A stretch of 64,000 bases of DNA from Candidatus Babelota bacterium (GTDB lineage Bacteria; Babelota; Babeliae; Babelales; JACPOV01), in NCBI GenBank assembly GCA_016191325.1, contig JACPOV010000008.1:578900-642899 (forward strand). The letters are read 5' to 3'. Of this stretch, positions 12,211 through 30,376 are shown one piece after another. The translations under genes and the position numbers were made by a program. The notes beneath the pieces were generated by a model, which was not told the origin of the DNA, ran no database searches, and was given only the letters and a program-made list of their open reading frames with translations. The first letter of the stretch is position 1. Every line of letters starts with the position of its first letter.

Positions 12211-14922
12211 ATGATGAATATTGTTTTATTTTTATACCAAATTATTAGCAGTAATCCATTTTTATTAGCTGTTGCAATTACTGCATTAATTTGTAAAACA
12301 TTTCTGTTCGCGATGACCATCACGCATGGCATTAGGGCCTCCAAAATTCAGCGTCCTTGGTTCTTTTTAGTTCCAGTATTAATTGGAGCAATGTTCTCTG
12401 ATATAGCATGGATAACTTCGACGTCATATCGACTTTTTTTCTCTAATCTTGATTATCGCCCTTTTTTATTCATTATTAGACTCGCATGGGCTTTAACAAT
12501 TATTCAATACCAATCTTTATGTTTTTTTCTTGAAAGCTTAACAGAGAAAGATCGTCGCCTTCGTTTGCATCAAAAAATATTCATGGCAGTCAGTACGATT
12601 TTTGCACTCTCATTTGTGTATCTTGCAATCTTTGAATTCAATAACCCTACAAATCGTCCTCCAATTGAATTTCAATTATTAACCATCAATTCCGTTTATA
12701 TTTTCTTCCTAATTATTCCAAGCATCTTGGTTGTCCTGAGACACCTAAGAAATCCTCACATGCCAAAAATTTTAAAAAAGCAGATTAAGATTCTAATTCA
12801 GATGATAATTGCACCGCAATTATTATTTGATTTTATTCAGATATTTCCATTTTCTTTTTCGCAGACCTATATTGCAAGTAATTATGCAGTGGTAAGCATT
12901 TCTACAATTTTATTAACGATGGCTTTTTACTTTTCGGCCAAAAAAATTATTGGTTTACGATTTTTAAACTTCCAGGAACATGTACAAACTGCGCCGCATT
13001 TTAACTTTATTGATGATTTCAAAAACGTGCTTGAGCAGCTCAGTTTTGCAACAACAAAACAAGAACTCGCGCATATCACGGTGAATTTCTTTAAAGGTGC
13101 TTTTTATTTGCCTGCAAATAGAATATCGCTTCATTTACGCCGTCTACCCAATGCAGAAATGACCAAAGATGAATATGGCACGCTCGAATGGCGTGAATCG
13201 ATTGTAGAGAACTTTGTCTGCAATCACGATGAAGCGACGTGCGACATTGCACTTTATTTACAGAAAGCAAAAATATTAATCGCTGACGAGATTGCATTTA
13301 GCAATTTTTATGAAGATAGCTCTGTTGGCAGTTCCGTGTCTCGATTCATGGATGAAATAGACGCAGATATTTTCCTGCCGATTTATCAAAAAGATCTTAT
13401 TATCGCCTATATTCTCGTTGAGCGAAACGCGCGCACGAGTGAATTTTATAATCGGATCGAACGCGATGAGATGGTGGTCTTTGCAAGCTACTTAAGCAAT
13501 ATTATTCACTTATTGCAAAACCGAAACCTTGATGCGCTTATGGAACGTGAAAAAGAAATACAAGAAGAACTTTATAGAAAACACCAGGAAATTAATCAGT
13601 ACAAAGAAAGTATTCAATCATTTCTGCGTTCAGCTCAGCAACGCAAAATTGGTATTATCTTTTATAAAAATAGACGGTTTATATTCGGCAATCAGGCCGC
13701 AAAAGAACTTGTGAGCATTAACCCAAATTCTCTAGAAGGCCATCCGCTCAGCAAGGCGCTTAAAACTATTGCACATCAAGTGCAAGATTATCGCAGTGGT
13801 CAAACCGCATTTGCAAACGATACCAATGGTAATAAAATCGTGCTTTCCGGCATTCCTCATTTGGAAGAGAATGCGGTTATTATCACCGTTTATTATCCAG
13901 AGATTGGGGATCTGCTCAAACCGCAACTTGAGCAAATTAAGGATCCAAGCGAGTGGGACTATTTACTGTATCTTGAAACAACGCAATCTGGAAAATTAAT
14001 TAATCAGCTCATTCCGAGTAACAGCCCTCGATTATTACAATATAAAATAGAACTTTTAAAAGTGGCGCTTAGCAAAAAAGCGCTCTTACTGGACATGGCT
14101 GAGCAAGATGCGATCGCAACTGGAGAAATTATTCATCATATTAGTTTGCGCGAAACGCTTCATATTTTAAAATTGCACTCCCCTGAGAAAAATAGTGAAA
14201 CTGCCCACAAGATTTTTGGATTAAACCCACTTTTTGGCGGCTCGAATGAACCGGCACTCCTTGAAAAGTTAAACGAAACCGGAACCCTTATTATTCAAAA
14301 TGTCCATCTGCTGGAACTCGAAACGCAAAACCATTTAGCAGAGTTTATGAAATATGGTTTTTATCGCCGCTTCAAAAGTGAGCAAAAATTATCAAGCACC
14401 GCGCGCATTATTTGCACAACGCAACTTGATATGATGCCGCTGGTACAATCAGGCAAATTCAGCGCCGAACTCTATAGCGAATTAAAGCAAGCAACACTCA
14501 CCCTTCCTTCATTGCTCACCCTATCTGAGCATGAGCTTGCAGAACTCGCGCACGGATTTAGTGAACAGGCAATTAAAACACAGCCATTTAAAAATTTACT
14601 TGAACTGACCGATCAAGAAACGAACCGCATTATTTATAATCGCCCGGTCAGTTTGCATGAGTTTAAGGCCAAGATTGAGCAGTTCTTAGTAAACAAATCT
14701 AAAAAATCGCACATTTATCACGAAACGCAATTCGATCCTGCGTATAATGTTACCGATCCAGAATTGATCCAAGCGGCTCGCCTTGGTAAAAAAGCGCTCA
14801 AAGATCCGCGCATGATGTCTCTTCTATGGAACAAATTTGGTAATCAAAACCAAATTGCAACGTTCCTTGGCGTCAACCGCTCATCGGTGAACAGACGCTG
14901 TAAAGAATACAACTTAGAGTAA
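12211..14922 (+). CDS. membrane-anchored NtrC/bEBP-like regulator with degenerate AAA+ domain and Fis-type HTH
   Basis: About 250 aa of multi-TM N-terminus are followed by a central sensor-like region. The sigma54-activator-like block is GTLIIQNVHLLELETQNHLAEFM...ARIICTTQLDM...GKFSAELYSELK..TLTLPSL, and the C-terminal HTH is NQIATFLGVNRSSVNRRCKEYNL. Confidence 0.6.
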   Translation: MMNIVLFLYQIISSNPFLLAVAITALICKTFLFAMTITHGIRASKIQRPWFFLVPVLIGAMFSDIAWITSTSYRLFFSNLDYRPFLFIIRLAWALTIIQYQSLCFFLESLTEKDRRLRLHQKIFMAVSTIFALSFVYLAIFEFNNPTNRPPIEFQLLTINSVYIFFLIIPSILVVLRHLRNPHMPKILKKQIKILIQMIIAPQLLFDFIQIFPFSFSQTYIASNYAVVSISTILLTMAFYFSAKKIIGLRFLNFQEHVQTAPHFNFIDDFKNVLEQLSFATTKQELAHITVNFFKGAFYLPANRISLHLRRLPNAEMTKDEYGTLEWRESIVENFVCNHDEATCDIALYLQKAKILIADEIAFSNFYEDSSVGSSVSRFMDEIDADIFLPIYQKDLIIAYILVERNARTSEFYNRIERDEMVVFASYLSNIIHLLQNRNLDALMEREKEIQEELYRKHQEINQYKESIQSFLRSAQQRKIGIIFYKNRRFIFGNQAAKELVSINPNSLEGHPLSKALKTIAHQVQDYRSGQTAFANDTNGNKIVLSGIPHLEENAVIITVYYPEIGDLLKPQLEQIKDPSEWDYLLYLETTQSGKLINQLIPSNSPRLLQYKIELLKVALSKKALLLDMAEQDAIATGEIIHHISLRETLHILKLHSPEKNSETAHKIFGLNPLFGGSNEPALLEKLNETGTLIIQNVHLLELETQNHLAEFMKYGFYRRFKSEQKLSSTARIICTTQLDMMPLVQSGKFSAELYSELKQATLTLPSLLTLSEHELAELAHGFSEQAIKTQPFKNLLELTDQETNRIIYNRPVSLHEFKAKIEQFLVNKSKKSHIYHETQFDPAYNVTDPELIQAARLGKKALKDPRMMSLLWNKFGNQNQIATFLGVNRSSVNRRCKEYNLE

Positions 14923-15037: not shown

Positions 15038-16702
15038 CTACAGTCCAATAAGCGAAACTACCTTTTTGATCAATTCCTGTATCCCTGGATCAAAGCTAAG
15101 GAAAACATCAATTGCCTCTTTACTCTTTGTTATATTAACCTGTTCCCCTTTGTGTTGCGCAATAAACGCCAAAAATGCTGCTTGAGGCAAAGTAATTTTT
15201 AGTGCAAGATCCTGTAATAAAAATAATGGTTTAAGATCGTAGAAATAAACTACTTTGCTATCCGGTAGATCGATTGATGCAAGAACAAGAGTCTCCCCTT
15301 TTGCATCAATGGCACCTACTTGAACACGATCCTTGAGTGGAAGTGAAGTAACAAGCTTACCTGTTGTTAAATCGTTTAACGAGATGCTGCCCGAAATTCT
15401 ACGAAAACCACCCTCTTGCGATAAAGCAACGACGAATTTATTTAACGGATCGAAGACGATTTGAGAAACTTCTCCAGATATGAAAAATGGGGCTTTATAG
15501 CTTTTATCAGCTTCCATGTCATAAATCGTAATGCTATTTTGATCTTTTTTTGTATCGATAATGGTAGCAAACTGTCCGTTATTACTTAATCTAACATTGC
15601 CTATTTCTTTTTTGGCAAGAAGCATTTTTTCAATTTTTTCGCCGGTTTTAAGATTAACTTGAATAATTTCCCCGACCGCATTAGCAATGCTTAAATATTT
15701 ATCATCATCAGAAAATGCCAGCGTTGAAAGAACACTGCCATTCGTTTTTAGCGAAACAGATATTGTTTCAGTTTTGGCAGTTGCGATCTCAAAAAGTATA
15801 ATCTCGTATCCCTTTTCATCATCAATGTTGCCGCCTACAGCAATTTTTTTATTATCATGAGAAAAACAAAGTCCCGTTGGATTAAATGACAAAGATTTTT
15901 CTGCGGTGAGCCCCGTCGGCTTCTTTAGTGACCATAATTCCAGTTTTTTATTTATTGTTCCCACAGCAAACCATAATCCGTCAGTGCTCAAAGCATATGA
16001 TATAATCCGGTTTCCTATTTTAATATCGACCCCATTTTTTGGGTCTTGAATAGTTTGAAAGCGGACTTTACCTAATGCTGACCCTTTATTAATCAAAACG
16101 ACACTTTTTCCTGACGCGCTGAAAGCAATCGTGTCAAAATCAGCTTGAACTTGTTGAGACGATATTCGCCCGCCAGACAACGAACTCTGTATAGCCTCTT
16201 GCTTAATAAGCGCCGCTGCTATTCGTTCTTGTACTGTTTGTGGCAACACAAAAGATTTAACTGCCAGCGGATCAGTTTTTGCACGCTCCGTGATTCGTTT
16301 AAGCGCTTCCTGAATCAACGCTTCATCAAGTTTATCTATCCCCAGAAAATCTACCACTGCAATGAGTTGCTCTATTTCTGCCGTTGACTGCGTCGAAAGA
16401 AACTTCCTTAGCGCTGCCGAATTAGTTAAATATGGCAGAGCTTTAACCAATAAAGCAATTTGATATTTCGGTAATTTAGCCATGTTAAAAGAAGAAATAG
16501 TGTCAAGATTAAGCTTTTCAAATTCGACGATCTTATTCAATGCCTCTGAGTTGCGCATAATACTTTTAAAACTATCGCGAGCAATAGCAATCGGCCCATT
16601 TGCAGTGTTGATGGTAACTTTATCGCTTGATGATGGCGGTAATTCCATAGAAACCGCTTGTATAACTATCATGAGCGCACAAATAATACTTAATCTTTTC
16701 AT
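15038..16702 (-). CDS. exported Skp1/BTB(POZ)-fold plus beta-propeller repeat protein
   Basis: Signal-like MKRLSIICALMIVIQAVS. The N-terminal domain ends IEQLIAVVDFLGIDKLDEALIQEALKRI (BTB/Skp1 helix pattern), and WD40/PD40-like repeats follow (e.g. LAFSDDDKYLSIANAVGEIIQVNL). It is a paralog of 27286-29013. Confidence 0.6.
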   Translation of the reverse strand: MKRLSIICALMIVIQAVSMELPPSSSDKVTINTANGPIAIARDSFKSIMRNSEALNKIVEFEKLNLDTISSFNMAKLPKYQIALLVKALPYLTNSAALRKFLSTQSTAEIEQLIAVVDFLGIDKLDEALIQEALKRITERAKTDPLAVKSFVLPQTVQERIAAALIKQEAIQSSLSGGRISSQQVQADFDTIAFSASGKSVVLINKGSALGKVRFQTIQDPKNGVDIKIGNRIISYALSTDGLWFAVGTINKKLELWSLKKPTGLTAEKSLSFNPTGLCFSHDNKKIAVGGNIDDEKGYEIILFEIATAKTETISVSLKTNGSVLSTLAFSDDDKYLSIANAVGEIIQVNLKTGEKIEKMLLAKKEIGNVRLSNNGQFATIIDTKKDQNSITIYDMEADKSYKAPFFISGEVSQIVFDPLNKFVVALSQEGGFRRISGSISLNDLTTGKLVTSLPLKDRVQVGAIDAKGETLVLASIDLPDSKVVYFYDLKPLFLLQDLALKITLPQAAFLAFIAQHKGEQVNITKSKEAIDVFLSFDPGIQELIKKVVSLIGL

Positions 16703-21687: not shown

Positions 21688-21726
21688 CAAAAAAAAGAGC
21701 AGCGGAATTTAATCCACTGCTCTTAA
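21688..21726 (-). terminator. intrinsic terminator after rpsT
   Basis: The minus strand reads aagagcagtgg-attaaatt-ccgctgctctt followed by tttttttt, directly downstream of the S20 stop. Confidence 0.6.
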
Positions 21727-21750: not shown

Positions 21751-22020
21751 TTATTTACTTGCTGCTGCTACTCGTTTTGCCAAACGGCCGATTTTGCGAG
21801 ATGCCGCTTTCTTATGAAGCGTACCTTTGCCTTTTGCGCGAGCTAATTTTGCTTCGATATCACGCATAAGTTCTTGCGTTACTTTGATATCTTCGCCTTG
21901 CTCGATTGCAAGAAGAACTTTTTTTGCAGCACTCTTAATTGCTGTTTTGCGAGCGAGATTTACATCACGACGCTTAATATTTTGACGCGATTGTTTTTTA
22001 GCAGATTTCGTATTGGCCAT
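21751..22020 (-). CDS. rpsT: 30S ribosomal protein S20
   Basis: MANTKSAKKQSRQNIKRRDVNLARKTAIKSAAKK is the classic S20 N-terminus. 89 aa. Confidence 0.9.
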   Translation of the reverse strand: MANTKSAKKQSRQNIKRRDVNLARKTAIKSAAKKVLLAIEQGEDIKVTQELMRDIEAKLARAKGKGTLHKKAASRKIGRLAKRVAAASK

Positions 22021-22398: not shown

Positions 22399-23280
22399 TC
22401 AATCTTCCTGAGCAAGATAAAGCATCAATTGCCGATAAATTTCAGTATTGCCGGCAAGATAGGATCGATAATCGGCCGTAGGAACCGTCCCGTGGTAGGT
22501 TGTTACCGTGCCGCCCGCTTCCTGAATAAGGAGCATGCCGGCCGCAATATCCCACCAGCCAAGCTCCTGAAAGAATAATCCATCAGCACGGCCGCAAGCC
22601 ACGTACGCTTGTTCAAGCGCAATAGCTCCCAAGTGCCGGTATGCAAAAATTTTGGGTGCCAGTGCGTCTGCGGTTTTCAAGGTATCGGAATGTGCCTTGC
22701 CTTTGGTATAAGGAAGCCCGAAAAAAACCATCGCTTTATCGAGCGTTTGTACCCTGCTAACCGCCACCGGCTTTCCATTGAGGGTGGTTGGCTTGCCCTG
22801 CTGCGCCACAAAAAGCTCATCGCGCAACGGATCATAAACAATCCCAAGGATTGGATGCCCTTGAGAAGTCAAAGCAACTGAGACACAAAAATAAGGAATT
22901 TGGCGTGCAAAATTGGTAGTCCCATCAAGTGGATCGATCACCCAACAAAGTTCATTATTACCACTTTTTCCCCCAGGGCTAAAGCCCTCTTCTTTATCCC
23001 CAAAAAACGCCGGGCTTGAATCATTCACAGAATGAGAGAATTGTTTTTCGGGGGCCCCAGGGCTAAAGCCCTCTTCTTCTGCAAGCCATGATGCTCGCGG
23101 AAGAATCTTTTCCAAAGCAGCAATAAGAAACTTTTCAGATGCCATATCGGCATTCGTTGCAAATCCGGCTTGATCTTTATCATGAATTTCAAGTTTTTTG
23201 CCGTAAAACGTGAGCAATAGTTGCCCCGCTTGCTTTACTGCGGCTCTAGTTTCATCTATTACTCTTTGAGCAATCTCCAT
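22399..23280 (-). CDS. suhB: inositol monophosphatase family protein (SuhB-like) with in-frame insertion
   Basis: Metal-binding EEEG and WVIDPLDGTTNF motifs, plus the C-terminal WDIAAG motif. It carries an extra 28 codons between the EE and DPxDGT motifs. Confidence 0.85.
   Translation of the reverse strand: MEIAQRVIDETRAAVKQAGQLLLTFYGKKLEIHDKDQAGFATNADMASEKFLIAALEKILPRASWLAEEEGFSPGAPEKQFSHSVNDSSPAFFGDKEEGFSPGGKSGNNELCWVIDPLDGTTNFARQIPYFCVSVALTSQGHPILGIVYDPLRDELFVAQQGKPTTLNGKPVAVSRVQTLDKAMVFFGLPYTKGKAHSDTLKTADALAPKIFAYRHLGAIALEQAYVACGRADGLFFQELGWWDIAAGMLLIQEAGGTVTTYHGTVPTADYRSYLAGNTEIYRQLMLYLAQED
22971..23078. repeat. 24-nt direct repeat pair (84-nt period) inside the IMPase CDS
   Basis: ccccagggctaaagccctcttctt occurs identically at 22971-22994 and 23055-23078. 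Each copy contains the palindrome agggct-aa-agccct and encodes EEGFSPG on the minus strand. Confidence 0.85.
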
Positions 23281-23592: not shown

Positions 23593-26247
23593 TCAGCTTT
23601 CCTGGCCCGTTAAGCGGAAATTGCTGCGCGGATCGATCCCAAGAAGCTCATACACTTCATCAGCATAAAGAACCTCTTTTTCAAGAAGCGCAATCGCCAA
23701 TTTATCAAGTTTTTCTCGGTGATTTTGCAGCAGTTCTTTAACCGCTACCATCGAAGTGCTCAGAATTTTTTCAACAAGCTCATCAATGCGCTCTGCAGTT
23801 TTTTCAGAATAACGATATTCGCGATTTTGATCGTAGACCACTGGGCCCATTTCGTCGGTCATACCGCCGCATACCATTCTGCGAACGAGAGAAGTTGCCT
23901 TTCTGAAATCATCCCCAGCGCCGGGAGTCATCACACCACACGCAAGCAATTCGGCAGCGCGCCCACCAAGCGCAACATACACGAACGCCATAAATCTATC
24001 TTTTGTCTCAAGCATTACATCCCGCTCAGGCAAGAAGTGAGTCACACCCAATGCGCCGCCGCGTGGAACGATCGTTACTTTATCAAGTGGATCGCCATGC
24101 TCCGGCATCAGAATGCGTACCAATGCATGCCCCGCTTCATGAAATGCGGTAATTTTTTTCTCTTGATCGCTCATTACGCGAGATTCCATTTTTTGGCCAA
24201 GCGTTACATGATCACGCGCTGCTTCAAAGTCGTGCATTGTTACAACGCTTTCATCCGCTCGTTTTGCCGCCATTAATGCAGCTTCATTGACTAAATTTGC
24301 CAGATCGGCGCCAGAAAATCCTGTAGTGCTTCGCGCAATACGAGATGCATCAATGGTGCCGTCAGTTTTAACGCGCGCAAGATGAACTTTAAGAATCTCT
24401 TCACGGCTTTTGAGCGTCGGATACGGAACGTGAATTTGTTTATCGAATCTTCCTGGGCGAACGAGAGCTGGATCGAGAACATCGGAACGGTTTGTTGCCG
24501 CAATAAGAATAACCGAAGAATCGATCGTATTGAATCCATCAAGTTCTGTAAGCAATTGATTTAACGTTTGATTTCGTTCTTCGCTACCGCCGCTGCCATT
24601 ATCGCTTCGGCGTGAACCGATCGAATCAAGCTCATCAATAAAAATGATGCTTGGCATATGTTTTCGAGCCTGCGTAAAAAGATCACGCACACGAGATGCA
24701 CCAACGCCAACATACATTTCTACAAAATCAGAAGCGCTGACGCTAAAGAATGGACAATTTGCTTCCCCTGCTACCGCTTTAGCAAGCAACGTTTTGCCAT
24801 TACCTGGATCGCCTACTAAAAGCACACCTCGCGGAATGCGGGCGCCAAGGCGACGATATTTTTCACCATTGCGCAGAAAATCTACAACGTCTTTCAATTC
24901 TTGTTTTGCTTCTGGCATACCTGCAACATCTGCAAAAGTAACCTTGATCTGCGAAGGAACAAACATTTTTACGTTGCCGCTTCCCTTGCTCATCGGATTA
25001 ACTGATGCGTTGCCGCCAGTTTTTTTCTCATGGACTATTTTTTTGTGAGCAGCTTTTAAATCGGCCATACCCACTTCAACTTTGCCCTCTTTTGAAGCTT
25101 GCAATGCTGCTTTATTGATGAGATCTCCCAAATCTGCGCCAGAAAACCCGGCCGTTTCGCGTGCAAGATCTTTTAAATCAACATCGGAACCCATTTTTAC
25201 TTTTTGTGAGTGAATCGCTAAAATTTGTTCGCGTGCCGTTTCATCTGGATAATCGACTGTTACCATGCGGTCAAAACGACCAGGTCGCAAGAGCGCTTTA
25301 TCCAAAACCTCAGGCATATTCGTAGCCGCGACAACGATAACGGCAGAATTATATGATTCAAAGCCATCCATCTCAATCAGAAGTTGATTAAGCGTTTGTT
25401 CACGTTCATCATGCCCACCACCAAATCCGCTTCCGCGTTGGCGCCCAATTGCGTCGATTTCATCAATAAAAACAATCGCTGGCGAATGACGGCGTACACG
25501 CTCAAAAAGATCGCGAACGCGCGCAGCGCCTACGCCCACAAATACTTCAATAAAATCGGAACCGGAAACGCTAAAGAATGGGCAATGCGCTTCGCCTGCC
25601 ATCGCTTTTGCAAGAAGTGTTTTACCATTACCTGGGTCGCCCACTAAAAGTACGCCACGAGGAATGCGTGCCCCAAGACGGCGATATTTTTCTGGGTTTT
25701 TAAGAAAATCTACAACGTCTTTCAGCGCCTCTTTGGCATCGGTAGCGCCCGCAACTGCGGAAAAGTTTTCATTGATCATAGAAGGGGTAAACATTTTTGC
25801 TTTACTTTTACCCATAGAAAAAATGCCGCCGCTACTATTATTTGAGCCGCGTGCTTGGCGCATGAAATACCATGCTGCAAGCGGTACTATCAATAACATG
25901 GCGATCCACATCATGTACCACATATTGTACGGATTGGAGTTTGCAGCTACGGAAAATTCTACATTGTGGTTTTTGAGCACATCCCAATTATTAGTATTTT
26001 CAGGAACGGTTACTTCAAAACGAGAGCCATCGTTCATGACGCCAAAAACATCTTGGCCAGAAACATGAACCGCTTTAACGTTTCCTTCTTCCACTGCTTT
26101 TAAATAGTTTGAATAACTAATTCCTTTAACCTGACGCGTATAATCGGTCAGCTTTGTCAGCAATCCCAAACAGGCAACAAATAATATAACAATAAAGACA
26201 AGATTTCGAGGCCCTTTGGATAATTGATTGAATCGCATTTTTTTCAT
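23593..26247 (-). CDS. ftsH: FtsH-family membrane protease with two tandem AAA+ modules and one M41 peptidase domain
   Basis: TM / FtsH-ext / TM N-terminus. There are two Walker A sites (GDPGNGKT x2), two Walker B sites ([16 protein letters not shown]), two ATN...RPGRFD SRH regions, then a single HEAGHAL. The track ORF extends to 26391, but ATG 26247 (MKKMRFNQ) is the likelier start. Confidence 0.9.
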
Positions 26248-26617
26248 AAGCGCTATCCTATCGGTCTTATATTTTTTAACGTGTCGCGTTACCGGCTCTT
26301 TCGCTTCCAACCCCAGAGCCATTTTTCCTGACTGAATTAATTTACGGCCTAAGGGCCGTTCTATTATGTCCAAAGTATACAATATAATCAAAAAACTGTC
26401 GATAGATTGCCCTAAAATCCGCGTTTTAGGGCGTGAACAAACATGAGTTGTTGTTCTTCAGTAATTTTTAAAGAATAATCGCACCCAATACGCAATCGTT
26501 ATCCCAAGGGCTAACAGAGAGGATAGTTTTTGTGCCGTACAACGATTGTCTATTTTCATTGTCTGCCCTGTATACATTGTGTTAAAATTTCTATTATGAA
26601 TATTTTATTTACAAGCC

Positions 26618-27285: not shown

Positions 27286-29013
27286 ATGAGCAAAAAGCTG
27301 TTTATTATTTTACTGGCATGTGCCACCACGCTTCATACCAATTATGCGATGGAACTCATTGGTATGGATATCAAACCGCACATAAGTTTGGATGTAATCG
27401 ATGGTACATTCGAAATCAATGAATCAGATTATGGTCTATTGGAAAATTATTCGATCACCATGAAAGACTATCAAGAAGATACCAAAGAAGAGTTGAAAAA
27501 GTTCAAGTTAACGAAAAACTCATTAACTACTCTCATTAATTATTTAAGTATGCTCGATTCAAACAAAGAAAAACTCCTCAATCAGCTTAAGACAGAAAAA
27601 AATGAAGATTTAAATATAGGACTTCAAGCAGCCGATTATCTTAATATTCCTGATTTGGTTACTGCGATTACTGATGAATTAGCGACTCGCTTCAATTCAG
27701 CGCAATTTATTTCGCAATTCAAAAAAAATCCTGCGATTCTCAAAAACTTAAAACTTTATCCTCAAATCAACAATGCTATAGCAAAAAAAATTCTCGAAAA
27801 AAATTCTCCTGTAGTGAGCTTTCTGAAATCACAATTGAAGTTTCCAATTATTAATAATGCTTCGATAACGGACACTGTAAATAAAGTTTTTGCAATTAAC
27901 CCTAAAAATACCATTATTGCTTTTGGTGCGCCAAAAGTTACTGAATCAAAAACAATAAAAGCAATTGTTAACCTGTATGACATCGTCAGCGGCACATTAA
28001 TTCATACTATTGATGATGATTCATTTGGCAATTCGATTTATGGACTTTCATTCAGCCCCGATGGAACTATGCTTGGCATAGCTGATCGAGCTTCTTTTTA
28101 TCTCTATAATGCAACTACCTATAAGCCTATTAAACAATTCGATTCTGATGCATTTACTGTCGCGTTCACAAGCGATAGTAAAAATGTTGCATTTAGTGAT
28201 GGGGCGACGGTAAATATTTGGGACTTTGAGCAGCAAAATATTATTTTTACAGATGCTCCCGTTCAAGAAGGTATACTTACAAACCTTATATTTAGCCCAA
28301 ACAATGAATTCCTTGCCGGATCCTTCGGCCATACATTTATTAACTGGAATCTTGGAATCATAAATCCTTTAATCTTTCCTAGCTCAGCCCTTGGACACAA
28401 TATTGCTTATACTAATGCGTCCGAATCTAACCTTAACTCCGATAGAGGCCCTTTCATCTTTACACCAGATAGCTCAGAGATCCTTGTCGGGTTGAAAAAT
28501 GGAGCAATAAATATCCACAGTTTATTCATAGGTTTCAAATCAAAAACATCATTAACTGGTCGCGAAGGCATTAATTCTCTCTGTTTTAGTTCAGATCAAT
28601 CGTTACTAGCAAGTGCAAATGATTTTGGCGTTGATATATTCGATTGGCAAACAAAAAAACAACTTTTTTCTCTCTCTTCAGATCCCGTTTGGTTTGCAAC
28701 GTTTAATAAAATAAATACAAAACTTATTACTGTCGGGGCGGGACAAAAAATCCAAATAACTATATACGATTTATCACCAATTTCTGGGCTACTAAACTAT
28801 CTTAATAACCTTCAAACAGAGCAAATTATTCTTTTACTTTTAATATATAAATATGGATCCGCAATTATTAACGAAAACCAGCAGCTAAAAACGCTGTTTG
28901 AAAGCTTGCCACAAAGTATGAAAACGCTGTTTACTATGCCAACAGCACCCCAAGGTGAATCATTTATGAAAGCTTGGTGGGGTTATGCAAGAAACTATTT
29001 CATGAAAAAATAA
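27286..29013 (+). CDS. exported Skp1/BTB(POZ)-fold plus beta-propeller repeat protein
   Basis: Signal-like [41 protein letters not shown]...[28 protein letters not shown] parallels the Skp1 segments [13 protein letters not shown]... and [25 protein letters not shown]. WD40/PD40-like repeats follow ([36 protein letters not shown]). Confidence 0.6.
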   Translation: [575 protein letters not shown]

Positions 29014-29026
29014 GTTTTTGCAAAAA

Positions 29027-30376
29027 TTATACAACTATTGGTTGTTCATAAAGCGGCGACCAGCTTGGATAGCAGCAACGATCTTGTGCGCTCGTTACAT
29101 AAATGCGCTCATTACTAAAAACATGATGCACCGCAACTCTACTTGTTTTTCCATTAGTTACGGTAAATGCCAAATAGTTTCCGCAGGGAGACCAACACGA
29201 TTCTTCTTTATTACTGTTATCAAACGTCATTTGTGTATGCGTTTTGGTGATCAAATCGTAGGAGAAAAGCTGCGCAACGCCATTGCACATACGCGAATAA
29301 GCTATTTTGCTTGTCGCTTGGCAAAAACTTGGGCTTGAACAATATCCGTCGTTGGTCACTCTTTCAAATTCCTTTGTATCAGCATGATAATAGCAAATAT
29401 ACGGCTGCTTGCTTCCTGCATCTGAACAAAAAACAATATCTCCATTATCGCAGAGTGTTGGCGAAATATTTTGGCCGCTATTATGAGTAATTTGCGAAAG
29501 TGAAGGCCGGCCTGTTTGCGCATCTATCTGATATAAATAAATGGTGCTCTTGCTTCCAATAGAACCATCGCACGAACAATAGACGACTTTTTTCCCATCG
29601 TTTGAAAATGAAGGACGCATCACAAACCCATCAAGATTTGCGACCATTTTTCTCTTTTTATCCATAGCGACCGACATTAAACGCACATTTGAATTCGTAA
29701 TTTCTGAATATAAAACCATTGGCGCAAGAGAATCGTTATTCCAACGCGGTGCAAATGCATTTGCATGCTGCACAAGAAGCGAAGATTGTTCCGCACATTT
29801 TTCGCAATCAATATAGGGCGCAGTTACATAAATATGTTTTTCGATTTTCTTTCCCTTGATCCTTTTTTCTTTGCAGTACGCAATGCGCGTTGAGAAAAAA
29901 CCACCCTGGCCGGTGAGTAATGGCCATACTTGATCAGCAATGTGTTCCGCTACAATCGCTGGCGGATATTCTTTGGTAACAAACCGTTTACCTTTAAGCA
30001 TTTGATGCGCATCAAGATCATATAAGCGCCAATCGATGGTAGTGCCGCGCCACGAATGCGCTAAAAATAAACCGAGGCCAAAACCATCTTTCGTTAATTC
30101 TTTCATTGCAGCTTTTGATGGCTGTTTTTCAAATGGCATAACCGTAACTGAAAAACCACTCAGCATTACCTTTGAACGTTCAAGCATTTCTTTAAGTAAT
30201 GGAGAACTTGCATCCATTATTTCATTTGCATCAATAACGCCAATTAACAATTTCATTTTTTCGACCGATGATCCTTTAATCGAAACATTCATCGGCGCAT
30301 TTTCTAAAGCTGTGATACGCAAAAATAAAAAAATGGGTATCAGAAACAATAAAATTTTATTTTTAATACTATTCAT
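29027..30376 (-). CDS. tolB: Tol-Pal system beta-propeller protein TolB
   Basis: Signal peptide, TolB N-domain, FFSTRIAYC pattern and repeated PD40-type blades (PSFSNDGKKVVY, WSPCGNYLAFT). It is located downstream of tolQ-tolR-tolA. Confidence 0.8.
   Translation of the reverse strand: MNSIKNKILLFLIPIFLFLRITALENAPMNVSIKGSSVEKMKLLIGVIDANEIMDASSPLLKEMLERSKVMLSGFSVTVMPFEKQPSKAAMKELTKDGFGLGLFLAHSWRGTTIDWRLYDLDAHQMLKGKRFVTKEYPPAIVAEHIADQVWPLLTGQGGFFSTRIAYCKEKRIKGKKIEKHIYVTAPYIDCEKCAEQSSLLVQHANAFAPRWNNDSLAPMVLYSEITNSNVRLMSVAMDKKRKMVANLDGFVMRPSFSNDGKKVVYCSCDGSIGSKSTIYLYQIDAQTGRPSLSQITHNSGQNISPTLCDNGDIVFCSDAGSKQPYICYYHADTKEFERVTNDGYCSSPSFCQATSKIAYSRMCNGVAQLFSYDLITKTHTQMTFDNSNKEESCWSPCGNYLAFTVTNGKTSRVAVHHVFSNERIYVTSAQDRCCYPSWSPLYEQPIVV

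Follow-up and report, generated by a model that had tools for sequence, protein, structure and literature searches.

The window analysed here is a stretch of 64,000 nucleotides from a genome assigned to Candidatus Babelota bacterium (contig JACPOV010000008.1). Its minus strand carries an ftsH gene whose product has two complete AAA+ modules ahead of a single M41 protease domain. FtsH is widely conserved in bacteria, and canonical FtsH has one such module per chain. The gene lies in an open reading frame (23593-26391, minus strand) of 932 codons counted from TTG, with no stop or frameshift, and all parts of the gene described below are on the same strand. We conclude that this tandem FtsH is real, ancient and conserved, and that it is apparently undescribed.

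The position of the start codon determines the length of the protein. An earlier note on this DNA had placed the start at an ATG at 26391, but that codon is TTG. The N-termini of 63 family members line up at residue 49 (MKKMRF, M49), which is the ATG at 26247, and the NCBI model of an identical protein begins at M24 (ATG 26322; 909 aa). A promoter-like site (TCGACA-17-TATACT, 26374..26402; 10/12, a consensus match only) has a -10 element that ends at 26374, downstream of TTG 26391, which counts against a start at the TTG. Because the 63 homologous N-termini align at M49, and given the position of the promoter-like site, ATG 26247 is most likely the start, and the probable coding sequence (23593..26247) would encode 884 aa plus the stop. 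Residue numbers run from 26391, the first codon of the 932-codon frame, unless marked as 884-aa numbering.

The single chain is ordered TM1, FtsH_ext, TM2, AAA with lid, AAA with lid, and Peptidase_M41, where TM stands for a transmembrane helix. TM1 (residues ~63-82, 26146..26205) has a Kyte-Doolittle 19-mer peak of 2.56 at residue 64 and is seen as helix 13-38, counted along the model, in an AlphaFold2 (AF2) model; TM2 (residues ~157-178, 25858..25923) has a hydropathy peak at 157-160 and is seen as AF2 helix 109-132. The two helices flank the periplasmic FtsH_ext domain (residues 65-139, 25975..26199; Pfam PF06480, 30.4 bits against a cut-off of 25.5), and Pfam, hydropathy and the AF2 helices all point to a membrane-anchored protein. 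At the other end, the Peptidase_M41 domain (residues 738-916, 23644..24180; PF01434, 175.6 bits) has an intact HEAGH (residues 751-755, 24127-24141). The H, E and H of this motif and the Asp of GAGDD (residue 828, 23908-23910) are invariant in the 63 sequences, and by analogy this Asp is a candidate third zinc ligand.

Between TM2 and the protease, PF00004 (AAA) and AAA_lid_3 each match in two stretches. Repeat unit 1 (residues 191-466, 24994..25821) consists of a pre-AAA linker, [11 protein letters not shown], followed by module D1 and its lid. D1 contains Walker A GDPGNGKT (residue 251, 25618-25641), pore-1 FVGVG (residue 284, 25528-25542), Walker B VFIDEIDA (residue 307, 25450-25473), sensor-1 ATN (residue 356, 25318-25326) and RPGRFD (residue 369, 25270-25287). 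Repeat unit 2 (residues 467-742, 24166..24993) has the same makeup: its linker, [11 protein letters not shown], module D2 and a lid. The D2 motifs are Walker A GDPGNGKT (residue 527, 24790-24813), pore-1 YVGVG (residue 560, 24700-24714), Walker B IFIDELDS (residue 583, 24622-24645), sensor-1 ATN (residue 632, 24490-24498) and RPGRFD (residue 645, 24442-24459). The D1-D2 linker (residues 457-484, 24940..25023) shows the least conservation and the weakest constraint of any stretch, and within it residues 459-472 have a predicted local distance difference test score (pLDDT) below 50.

Several profiles bear on what kind of protein this is. The family model TIGR01241 (FtsH_fam) matches in two stretches with 1123.6 bits against a cut-off of 600, which places the protein in the FtsH family. 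The E. coli-type equivalog NF008004 does not reach its cut-off (861.5 against 1008), a shortfall that is expected for a distant phylum. With two complete AAA-plus-lid modules, the protein departs from the type I plan of one AAA module per protomer and has the type II arrangement, two tandem AAA modules in one polypeptide, both with nucleotide-binding motifs. It falls outside the Cdc48 lineage: TIGR01243 (CDC48) gives 449.7 bits where its cut-off is 802.65, no N domain is matched, and in neighbor-joining (NJ) trees the modules cluster with FtsH and not with Cdc48. Judged from its sequence, the protein is an FtsH by descent and domain content, and not by architecture.

The two modules are offset by exactly 276 aa. 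When residues 191-466 and 467-742 are aligned without gaps, 155 of the 276 positions are identical (56%), and a direct-repeat finder, independent of the protein alignment, gave a spacing of 828 nt. The repeated unit begins in the linker after TM2 (GKSKAKMF versus GSGNVKMF) and ends past the lid domain. In DNA the 828-nt units are 57% identical (first codon positions 63%, second 72%, third 36%), and the proportion of synonymous differences between them, pS 0.74, is saturated. Because so few third positions agree and the synonymous sites are saturated, the duplication is old and not a near-identical repeat. By this codon comparison, the tandem duplication is ancient.

Most of what the earlier note had read from the letters holds. 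It had described a single frame with this domain order, which the open reading frame, Pfam and TIGR01241 bear out; the 276-aa offset and every motif position that it listed are exact; and the ungapped alignment agrees that the duplicated unit takes in the pre-AAA linker. The domain scan that it proposed returned two AAA domains, Peptidase_M41 and FtsH_ext in Pfam, and the pairwise and codon alignments found diverged copies, neither of which lacks catalytic residues. Its statement that the halves are highly similar along their whole length with no degenerate motif was right about the motifs, all of which are intact, and too generous about the similarity, which is 56% in protein and 57% in DNA. 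The two antisense frames that it saw mirroring the duplication, 24644-25048 and 25664-26068 on the plus strand, do exist. Each is 134 aa long and contains [10 protein letters not shown]. We reject them as genes: they arise where the conserved [11 protein letters not shown], present in both AAA modules, is read on the opposite strand.

A tandem repeat in an assembled genome could come from a collapsed or expanded repeat, or from two fused genes. We give such an assembly or annotation artefact next to no chance here. Near-identical repeats are absent, the copies being only 57% identical in nucleotides with saturated synonymous sites, and the frame runs without a stop or frameshift. An identical protein (MBI2775026.1) is found on a 1.24-Mb contig of a metagenome-assembled genome at NCBI ('Candidatus Dependentiae bacterium'), and its 90% cluster takes in other assemblies. 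Clusters of homologs drawn from NCBI, JGI, ENA and Logan assemblies, more than 130 in all, have this architecture too. Together with the divergence of the copies, these independent clusters rule out an assembly artefact.

Conservation of the two modules in Dependentiae

The same architecture, an N-terminal region followed by AAA, AAA and M41 in ~880 aa, was found in 110 of the 120 best database matches. These 110 proteins are 52-91% identical to the query over 95-100% (mostly 99%) of its length. Where sources of the family clusters are named, they are Dependentiae, Babeliales or Babeliaceae. A later search added further clusters, bringing the total to more than 130, and 135 proteins were measured for spacing. 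The tandem architecture is, from these matches, a conserved form in the sampled Dependentiae (TM6) family and not peculiar to one genome.

We counted motifs in 114 two-AAA proteins (the 110 family members plus four Symbiodinium proteins of the form AAA-M41-AAA-M41), with the D1 and D2 modules extracted and aligned separately. Walker A and sensor-1, (A/G/S)(A/G/S/T)TN, are present in both modules of all 114. Walker B, hhhhDE.D, is found in 112 of 114 D1 and 114 of 114 D2 modules, the R.GR of the second region of homology (SRH) in 114 and 112, and an aromatic pore-1 motif in 110 and 109. Pore-1 of D1 is the identical VFVGVG in 105 of 114 proteins, and that of D2 is usually xYVGVG. The pore-2 stretch of canonical FtsH, [21 protein letters not shown], occurs at high frequency in D1 and is variable in D2. 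Averaged over pairs of proteins, identity is 68% in D1 and 65% in D2, so D1 appears to be, if anything, the more conserved module.

Selection on the two modules can be estimated from an ortholog that is 81% identical (locus L083). The ratio of nonsynonymous to synonymous substitution (dN/dS) is 0.07 for D1, 0.09 for D2 and 0.24 for the inter-module linker, values that are approximate since dS is near saturation in this comparison. Both modules are complete, conserved and, by these estimates, under purifying selection. The distance from Walker A to Walker A in the 135 family proteins is 268-279 residues, with a mode of 275. This narrow range indicates that the spacing between the modules is under constraint, although the sequence of the linker is not.

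These data bear on the possibility that D1 is a structural or regulatory ring. It could bind ATP for assembly or act as a spacer, like D2 of NSF or the slow D1 of p97, setting a longer distance from membrane to protease or gating access and leaving the mechanical work to D2. A mainly structural ring is found in many type II AAA+ proteins, including NSF and p97, and D1 does have derived features: ATNMP takes the place of ATNRP, and the end of its lid has lost the canonical ARDKI.LG hinge that D2 keeps. However, D1 has lost no catalytic motif and still has the Walker B Glu and the two SRH arginines; its FVGVG pore-1 varies less than pore-1 of D2; it is D1 that keeps the canonical pore-2 stretch; and D1 evolves slightly more slowly than D2, both by identity and by dN/dS. 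We consider a purely structural or regulatory D1 unlikely.

The conservation also gives an estimate of when the duplication occurred. D1 and D2 of the same protein are on average 60% identical, and D1 is 59% identical to the D2 of other proteins. Since the within-protein and between-protein values are alike, there has been little or no gene conversion between the modules, and the duplication is older than the radiation of the sampled family.

Origin of the duplication

Both modules carry an unusual Walker A, G(D/E)PGNGKT, in place of the GPPGTGKT of canonical FtsH. At the N/T position of Walker A, the AAA modules of 149 further representative proteins from the whole library have N 17 times and T 125 times. 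The nearest single-AAA proteins form a small clade, consisting of P0295 (L082:3969-5840) and 12 clusters of ~620 aa (P0470-P0476, P0487, P0502, P0505, P0506 and P0509), and all of them have GxPGNGKT. A search for single-AAA relatives with the M41 domain alone returned short gene fragments only.

By synteny, the tandem gene sits at the ancestral ftsH locus. The single-AAA gene P0295 is in the order ftsH-rpmB-rpsT, and so is the tandem gene of a relative that is 56% identical (L084). In the window and in close relatives the order is ftsH, an inositol-monophosphatase family gene (suhB) and rpsT.

An NJ tree of the modules with 200 bootstraps included 13 members of the single-AAA clade; an earlier NJ tree with one such member was poorly supported. 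D1 is monophyletic with 96% support and the single-AAA clade with 99%. D1, D2 and the single-AAA clade group together at 63%, D2 with the single-AAA clade at 55%, D1 with that clade at 21%, and D1 with D2 at 2%. These groupings indicate that the duplication took place in the Dependentiae lineage. From the trees, it clearly arose within the FtsH lineage of Dependentiae and not from the Cdc48 family.

In our reading, a single unit of 276 aa, made up of the pre-AAA linker, the AAA large domain and the lid, was duplicated in frame and in tandem, which produced the order TM1, periplasmic domain, TM2, D1, D2, M41. The duplication probably preceded the split of the single-AAA clade, in which case that clade may reflect a secondary loss of D1, a possibility with moderate support (55%). 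The grouping of D2 with the single-AAA proteins may also be an effect of shared ancestral states on a distance method. A diagnostic-site test of the single-AAA relatives as D1/D2 chimeras had only 8 usable sites, and D2 and these relatives share the canonical (ancestral) states.

The genes around ftsH are in part conserved. Downstream lie the inositol-monophosphatase family gene (22399-23280) and rpsT, encoding S20 (21751-22020), both on the minus strand and both conserved neighbours, with a terminator-like hairpin beyond rpsT (21695-21724). Two large WD40/beta-propeller proteins and a TolB-like PD40 protein are encoded on either side of ftsH, at 15038-16702 (minus), 27286-29013 (plus) and 29027-30376 (minus). 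Upstream of ftsH in relatives there is a WD40 gene in P0002 and a TolB-like PD40 gene in P0002 and P0003. Expansions of WD40 and ankyrin proteins are a reported hallmark of Dependentiae genomes (PMC4378268). Farther away, 12211-14922 (plus) encodes a 903-aa protein whose sole Pfam match is the C-terminal half of a sigma-54-interaction AAA+ domain (residues 675-768); the gene is next to XerD-like and PBP2 genes, an arrangement kept in L083.

A predicted double ring and its alternatives

The geometry of the modules resembles that of p97. In sequence and profile hidden Markov model searches of the PDB, the top matches include the FtsH structures 2CE7, 3KDS and 7VHP, and no FtsH chain with two modules was found; all FtsH chains have at most 644 aa and match the query in two separate stretches. 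Chains of p97/VCP/Cdc48 match in one collinear stretch, query 161-669 (884-aa numbering) against p97 202-707, or 509 against 506 residues. The AF2 monomer model, made from the 63-sequence alignment, has a mean pLDDT of 79, with both modules and M41 at ~80-90, and a predicted template modelling score (pTM) of 0.51. Its disordered linkers are 133-148, after TM2, and 411-424, between the modules (884-aa numbering). In Foldseek, D2 plus M41 superimpose on FtsH (3KDS) and AFG3L2 (6NYY) with TM-scores of 0.80-0.85 normalised to the target.

In crystal and cryo-EM structures of FtsH, such as 2CE7, 3KDS and 7VHP, the M41 domains close into a six-fold ring, and it is this ring that drives hexamerisation. 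Because of this ring, the p97-like spacing, and the appearance of both modules as working motors, we think that the protein probably forms a hexamer in which two stacked, active AAA rings feed one M41 chamber. The stacked, type II-like double ring that the earlier note had suggested is thus the most plausible arrangement. Six chains would assemble via the M41 ring and twelve transmembrane helices, as in canonical FtsH. The twelve AAA modules would then form two stacked hexameric rings, with D1 facing the membrane and D2 adjoining the protease. The D1 pore loops, with their almost invariant FVGVG, would engage substrate tails and pass the substrate to the D2 pore loops, usually YVGVG, and from there it would enter the M41 chamber. 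Gripping pore loops and ATP sites would be doubled relative to a normal FtsH. By analogy to ClpA (PMC8666677, PMC11570520, PMC7568338), having two active rings would give the enzyme better grip and processivity when its substrates are stable.

The same modules could in principle be arranged differently. Both modules of one chain might lie side by side in a single AAA ring, with three chains and three M41 domains, or in another non-stacked oligomer, as in linked ClpX pseudo-hexamers, dynein or midasin. The D1-D2 linker of ~28 residues is long enough in principle, given that engineered ClpX single-chain rings have linkers of ~20 residues, and two chains of the three-module forms found elsewhere could give six modules. 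However, three M41 domains could not close a six-fold chamber, four-module forms do not divide into six, and the module spacing is within 3 residues of that in the stacked D1-D2 of p97. We therefore regard a side-by-side ring as quite improbable, and we favor the stacked hexamer.

A possible benefit of a second ring is suggested by the proteases of these bacteria. FtsH is reportedly a weak unfoldase, a description attributed to Herman et al. in 2003. Pagnier et al. 2015 (PMC4378268, Additional file 11) give repertoire counts for Babela massiliensis and JCVI TM6SC1, respectively: ClpP 0/0, ClpX 0/0, HslU 0/0, HslV 0/0, Lon 2/3, HflB/FtsH 4/1, and COG0542 1/1, labelled 'ClpA' in the table, with the Babela gene annotated as ClpB in file 2. 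LpxC is also 0/0 (PMC4378268). Of FtsH, the Babela genome paper mentions only an 'expansion of ATP-dependent Zn proteases' (PMC4378268). We speculate that the extra ring offsets the weak unfolding of FtsH where ClpXP and HslUV have been lost and Lon, FtsH and ClpB have been kept, and that the tandem FtsH could do the work of ClpXP or ClpAP.

Several points weigh against the stacked hexamer and against the speculation about its benefit. The data behind stacking are at the level of the monomer, so the form of the oligomer is one that we infer, and a linker of ~28 residues could permit other arrangements. In Foldseek, D1-D2 is collinear on p97 chains, but with a root-mean-square deviation of ~10 A, and a monomer pTM of 0.51 leaves the orientation of the domains uninformative, so that the model speaks neither for nor against p97-like stacking. 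The idea that FtsH compensates for lost proteases draws on two genomes from the literature and not on the source genome, of which the window covers 64 kb. Lineages that have ClpP, such as Muribaculaceae and Actinomycetota, also evolved multi-AAA FtsH, which weakens loss of ClpP as a general explanation. Finally, Babela massiliensis has four HflB genes, and mixed oligomers are possible there.

Mixed oligomers would give the second module a different meaning. If the tandem protein formed hetero-oligomers with single-AAA FtsH paralogs, the extra tier would be filled only in part and might be an adaptor or a regulatory appendage. Cyanobacteria, chloroplasts and mitochondria are well known to have FtsH hetero-hexamers, and an unrelated metagenomic locus, L081, has three adjacent FtsH-type genes, one of them multi-AAA. 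On the other side, JCVI TM6SC1 counts one HflB gene (a gene count only), there is no second FtsH within the 64-kb window, and the tandem gene holds the conserved ftsH-rpsT locus and is itself highly conserved. Overall, a hetero-oligomer of this kind seems to us a distant prospect, and a homohexamer with two stacked rings remains our preferred reading. Locus L081 (Logan SRR12901008 contig 238, 1-7914) has its three genes in a span of 8 kb. One encodes a canonical FtsH of 613 aa, another an AAA-M41 protein of 637 aa (P0373, Walker A GEPGNGKT) in which FtsH_ext was not matched, and the third a protein of 1086 aa that combines M41 with two or more AAA modules. From its gene content, L081 could be a hetero-oligomeric FtsH gene cluster.

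Multi-AAA FtsH and comparison with known systems

In the full-text literature searched, from which most subscription journals are absent, we found no paper that describes a tandem, double or multi-AAA FtsH, and none that describes the FtsH of Dependentiae, TM6 or Babela. The profile search found no curated NCBIfam model for the tandem form, and deposited tandem and multi-AAA sequences are named plainly 'FtsH' or 'AAA family ATPase'. The novelty that the earlier note had suggested holds in that neither a publication, a solved structure nor a curated family model was found. It does not hold in the sense of rarity, since the form is found in more than 130 clusters, and analogous forms with two to four modules occur in other phyla.

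FtsH-like proteins with several AAA modules are not confined to Dependentiae. Among the top 150 representatives at 50% identity from the whole library, 14 clusters are AAA-AAA-M41, nine have three AAA modules and M41, and one has four AAA modules and M41. Two-module proteins occur in Acidimicrobiales (L001:3001-5616) and Melainabacteria (P0403, RTL41810.1), along with about a dozen unnamed clusters. The Acidimicrobiales gene came from a profile scan of genome contigs selected via the universal pattern EREQTLNQ, in which matches were mostly canonical FtsH of other phyla and included no Dependentiae genomes; a long-looking gene of Cloacimonadota (L047) was examined as a tandem candidate and is not tandem. 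Thermoleophilaceae have a three-module form (P0294, MGI9082343.1). Muribaculaceae have a four-module form (P0048/P0043, Sodaliphilus pleomorphus WP_423828368.1) in clusters of 171 and 1047 members. All four of its modules have the P-loop GKT and the Walker B DE, the pore-1 loops of modules 2 and 3 are divergent, and the modules are spaced by 252-258 residues. Across the multi-AAA forms of other phyla, spacing is 250-274 residues, shorter than in the Dependentiae form. In several of these proteins the modules match one another best, and Walker A signatures differ between lineages, which argues that the multiplications are independent. By these criteria, the forms with two to four modules in other phyla appear to be independent of the Dependentiae duplication.

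Other large AAA proteins were also returned. 'FtsH' products of Symbiodinium and Durusdinium (P0045, P0046, P0053, P0082 and P0292) are 1400-1500 aa long with the order AAA-M41-AAA-M41, and one cluster member, P0160, is 2574 aa. These dinoflagellate forms are either another kind of multiplication, with two or more whole FtsH units per chain, or polycistron-like gene models. Two of the top 150 representatives, P0387 (2124 aa) and P0424 (2055 aa), contain six AAA modules of the classic clade in tandem and lack M41.

We propose, tentatively and with slightly less than even confidence in the whole of it, that Dependentiae have a 'type II FtsH', with two stacked and catalytically active rings in cis with M41, and that it is one case of a recurrent, undescribed multiplication of the FtsH motor to two, three or four modules that took place independently in at least 4-5 bacterial phyla, including the abundant gut Muribaculaceae. 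The recurrence of such forms across phyla deserves a systematic census. If the modules stack, the axial channels of the three- and four-module forms would run through three and four tiers, and we know of no precedent for such AAA+ machines. The role of a second AAA+ ring in unfoldases is an active question, for which ClpA, ClpB and p97 have so far been the objects of study. With two paralogous, fully competent rings fused to its protease, a natural FtsH would be a clean system for this question, with the same motor once or twice in one chain, and the single-AAA relative at the same locus offers a comparison for grip, processivity and extraction of membrane proteins. The tandem FtsH may also show how reduced intracellular bacteria maintain their proteins. 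We expect it to interest specialists in AAA+ proteases; it is not a new kind of system.

The closest known system is canonical FtsH (TIGR01241; MEROPS M41; E. coli 7VHP, T. maritima 2CE7/3KDS, T. thermophilus 2DHR). The tandem protein shares with it two N-terminal transmembrane helices around FtsH_ext, classic-clade AAA, pore-1 (F/Y)VGVG, the SRH RPGRFD, a C-terminal M41 with HEAGH, and the ftsH locus. It differs in having two AAA-plus-lid modules per chain, where canonical FtsH has one, and in its G(D/E)PGNGKT Walker A, where canonical FtsH has GPPGTGKT. In the multi-AAA FtsH proteins of other phyla, as in the Dependentiae protein, all AAA modules come first and one M41 follows. The Dependentiae form has no degenerate module, whereas the inner pore loops of the Muribaculaceae form are divergent.

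After FtsH, the best structural matches are in the group of p97/VCP/Cdc48, VAT, NVL and NSF. These proteins also have two tandem AAA modules of the same clade per chain, with practically identical spacing. Unlike them, the tandem FtsH has no Cdc48-type N domain, is membrane-anchored, and has its protease fused in cis, whereas p97 and VAT pass substrates to a separate 20S proteasome or to none.

The likeness to ClpAP and ClpCP is one of concept: a two-tier AAA+ unfoldase that feeds a proteolytic chamber, with both tiers active as ATPases in the Clp enzymes. In ClpA, the pore loops of D1 and D2 divide the labour and give a better grip on stable substrates (PMC8666677, PMC11570520, PMC7568338). 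The AAA+ clades are different, and whereas D1 and D2 of ClpA are unrelated in clade, the two modules described here are FtsH-type paralogs. ClpP is a separate serine peptidase that meets its unfoldase with a 6:7 symmetry mismatch, in contrast to the fused zinc metalloprotease, six-fold by analogy to FtsH, of the tandem protein. Lastly, the Clp proteases are soluble, whereas the tandem FtsH is predicted to be membrane-bound.

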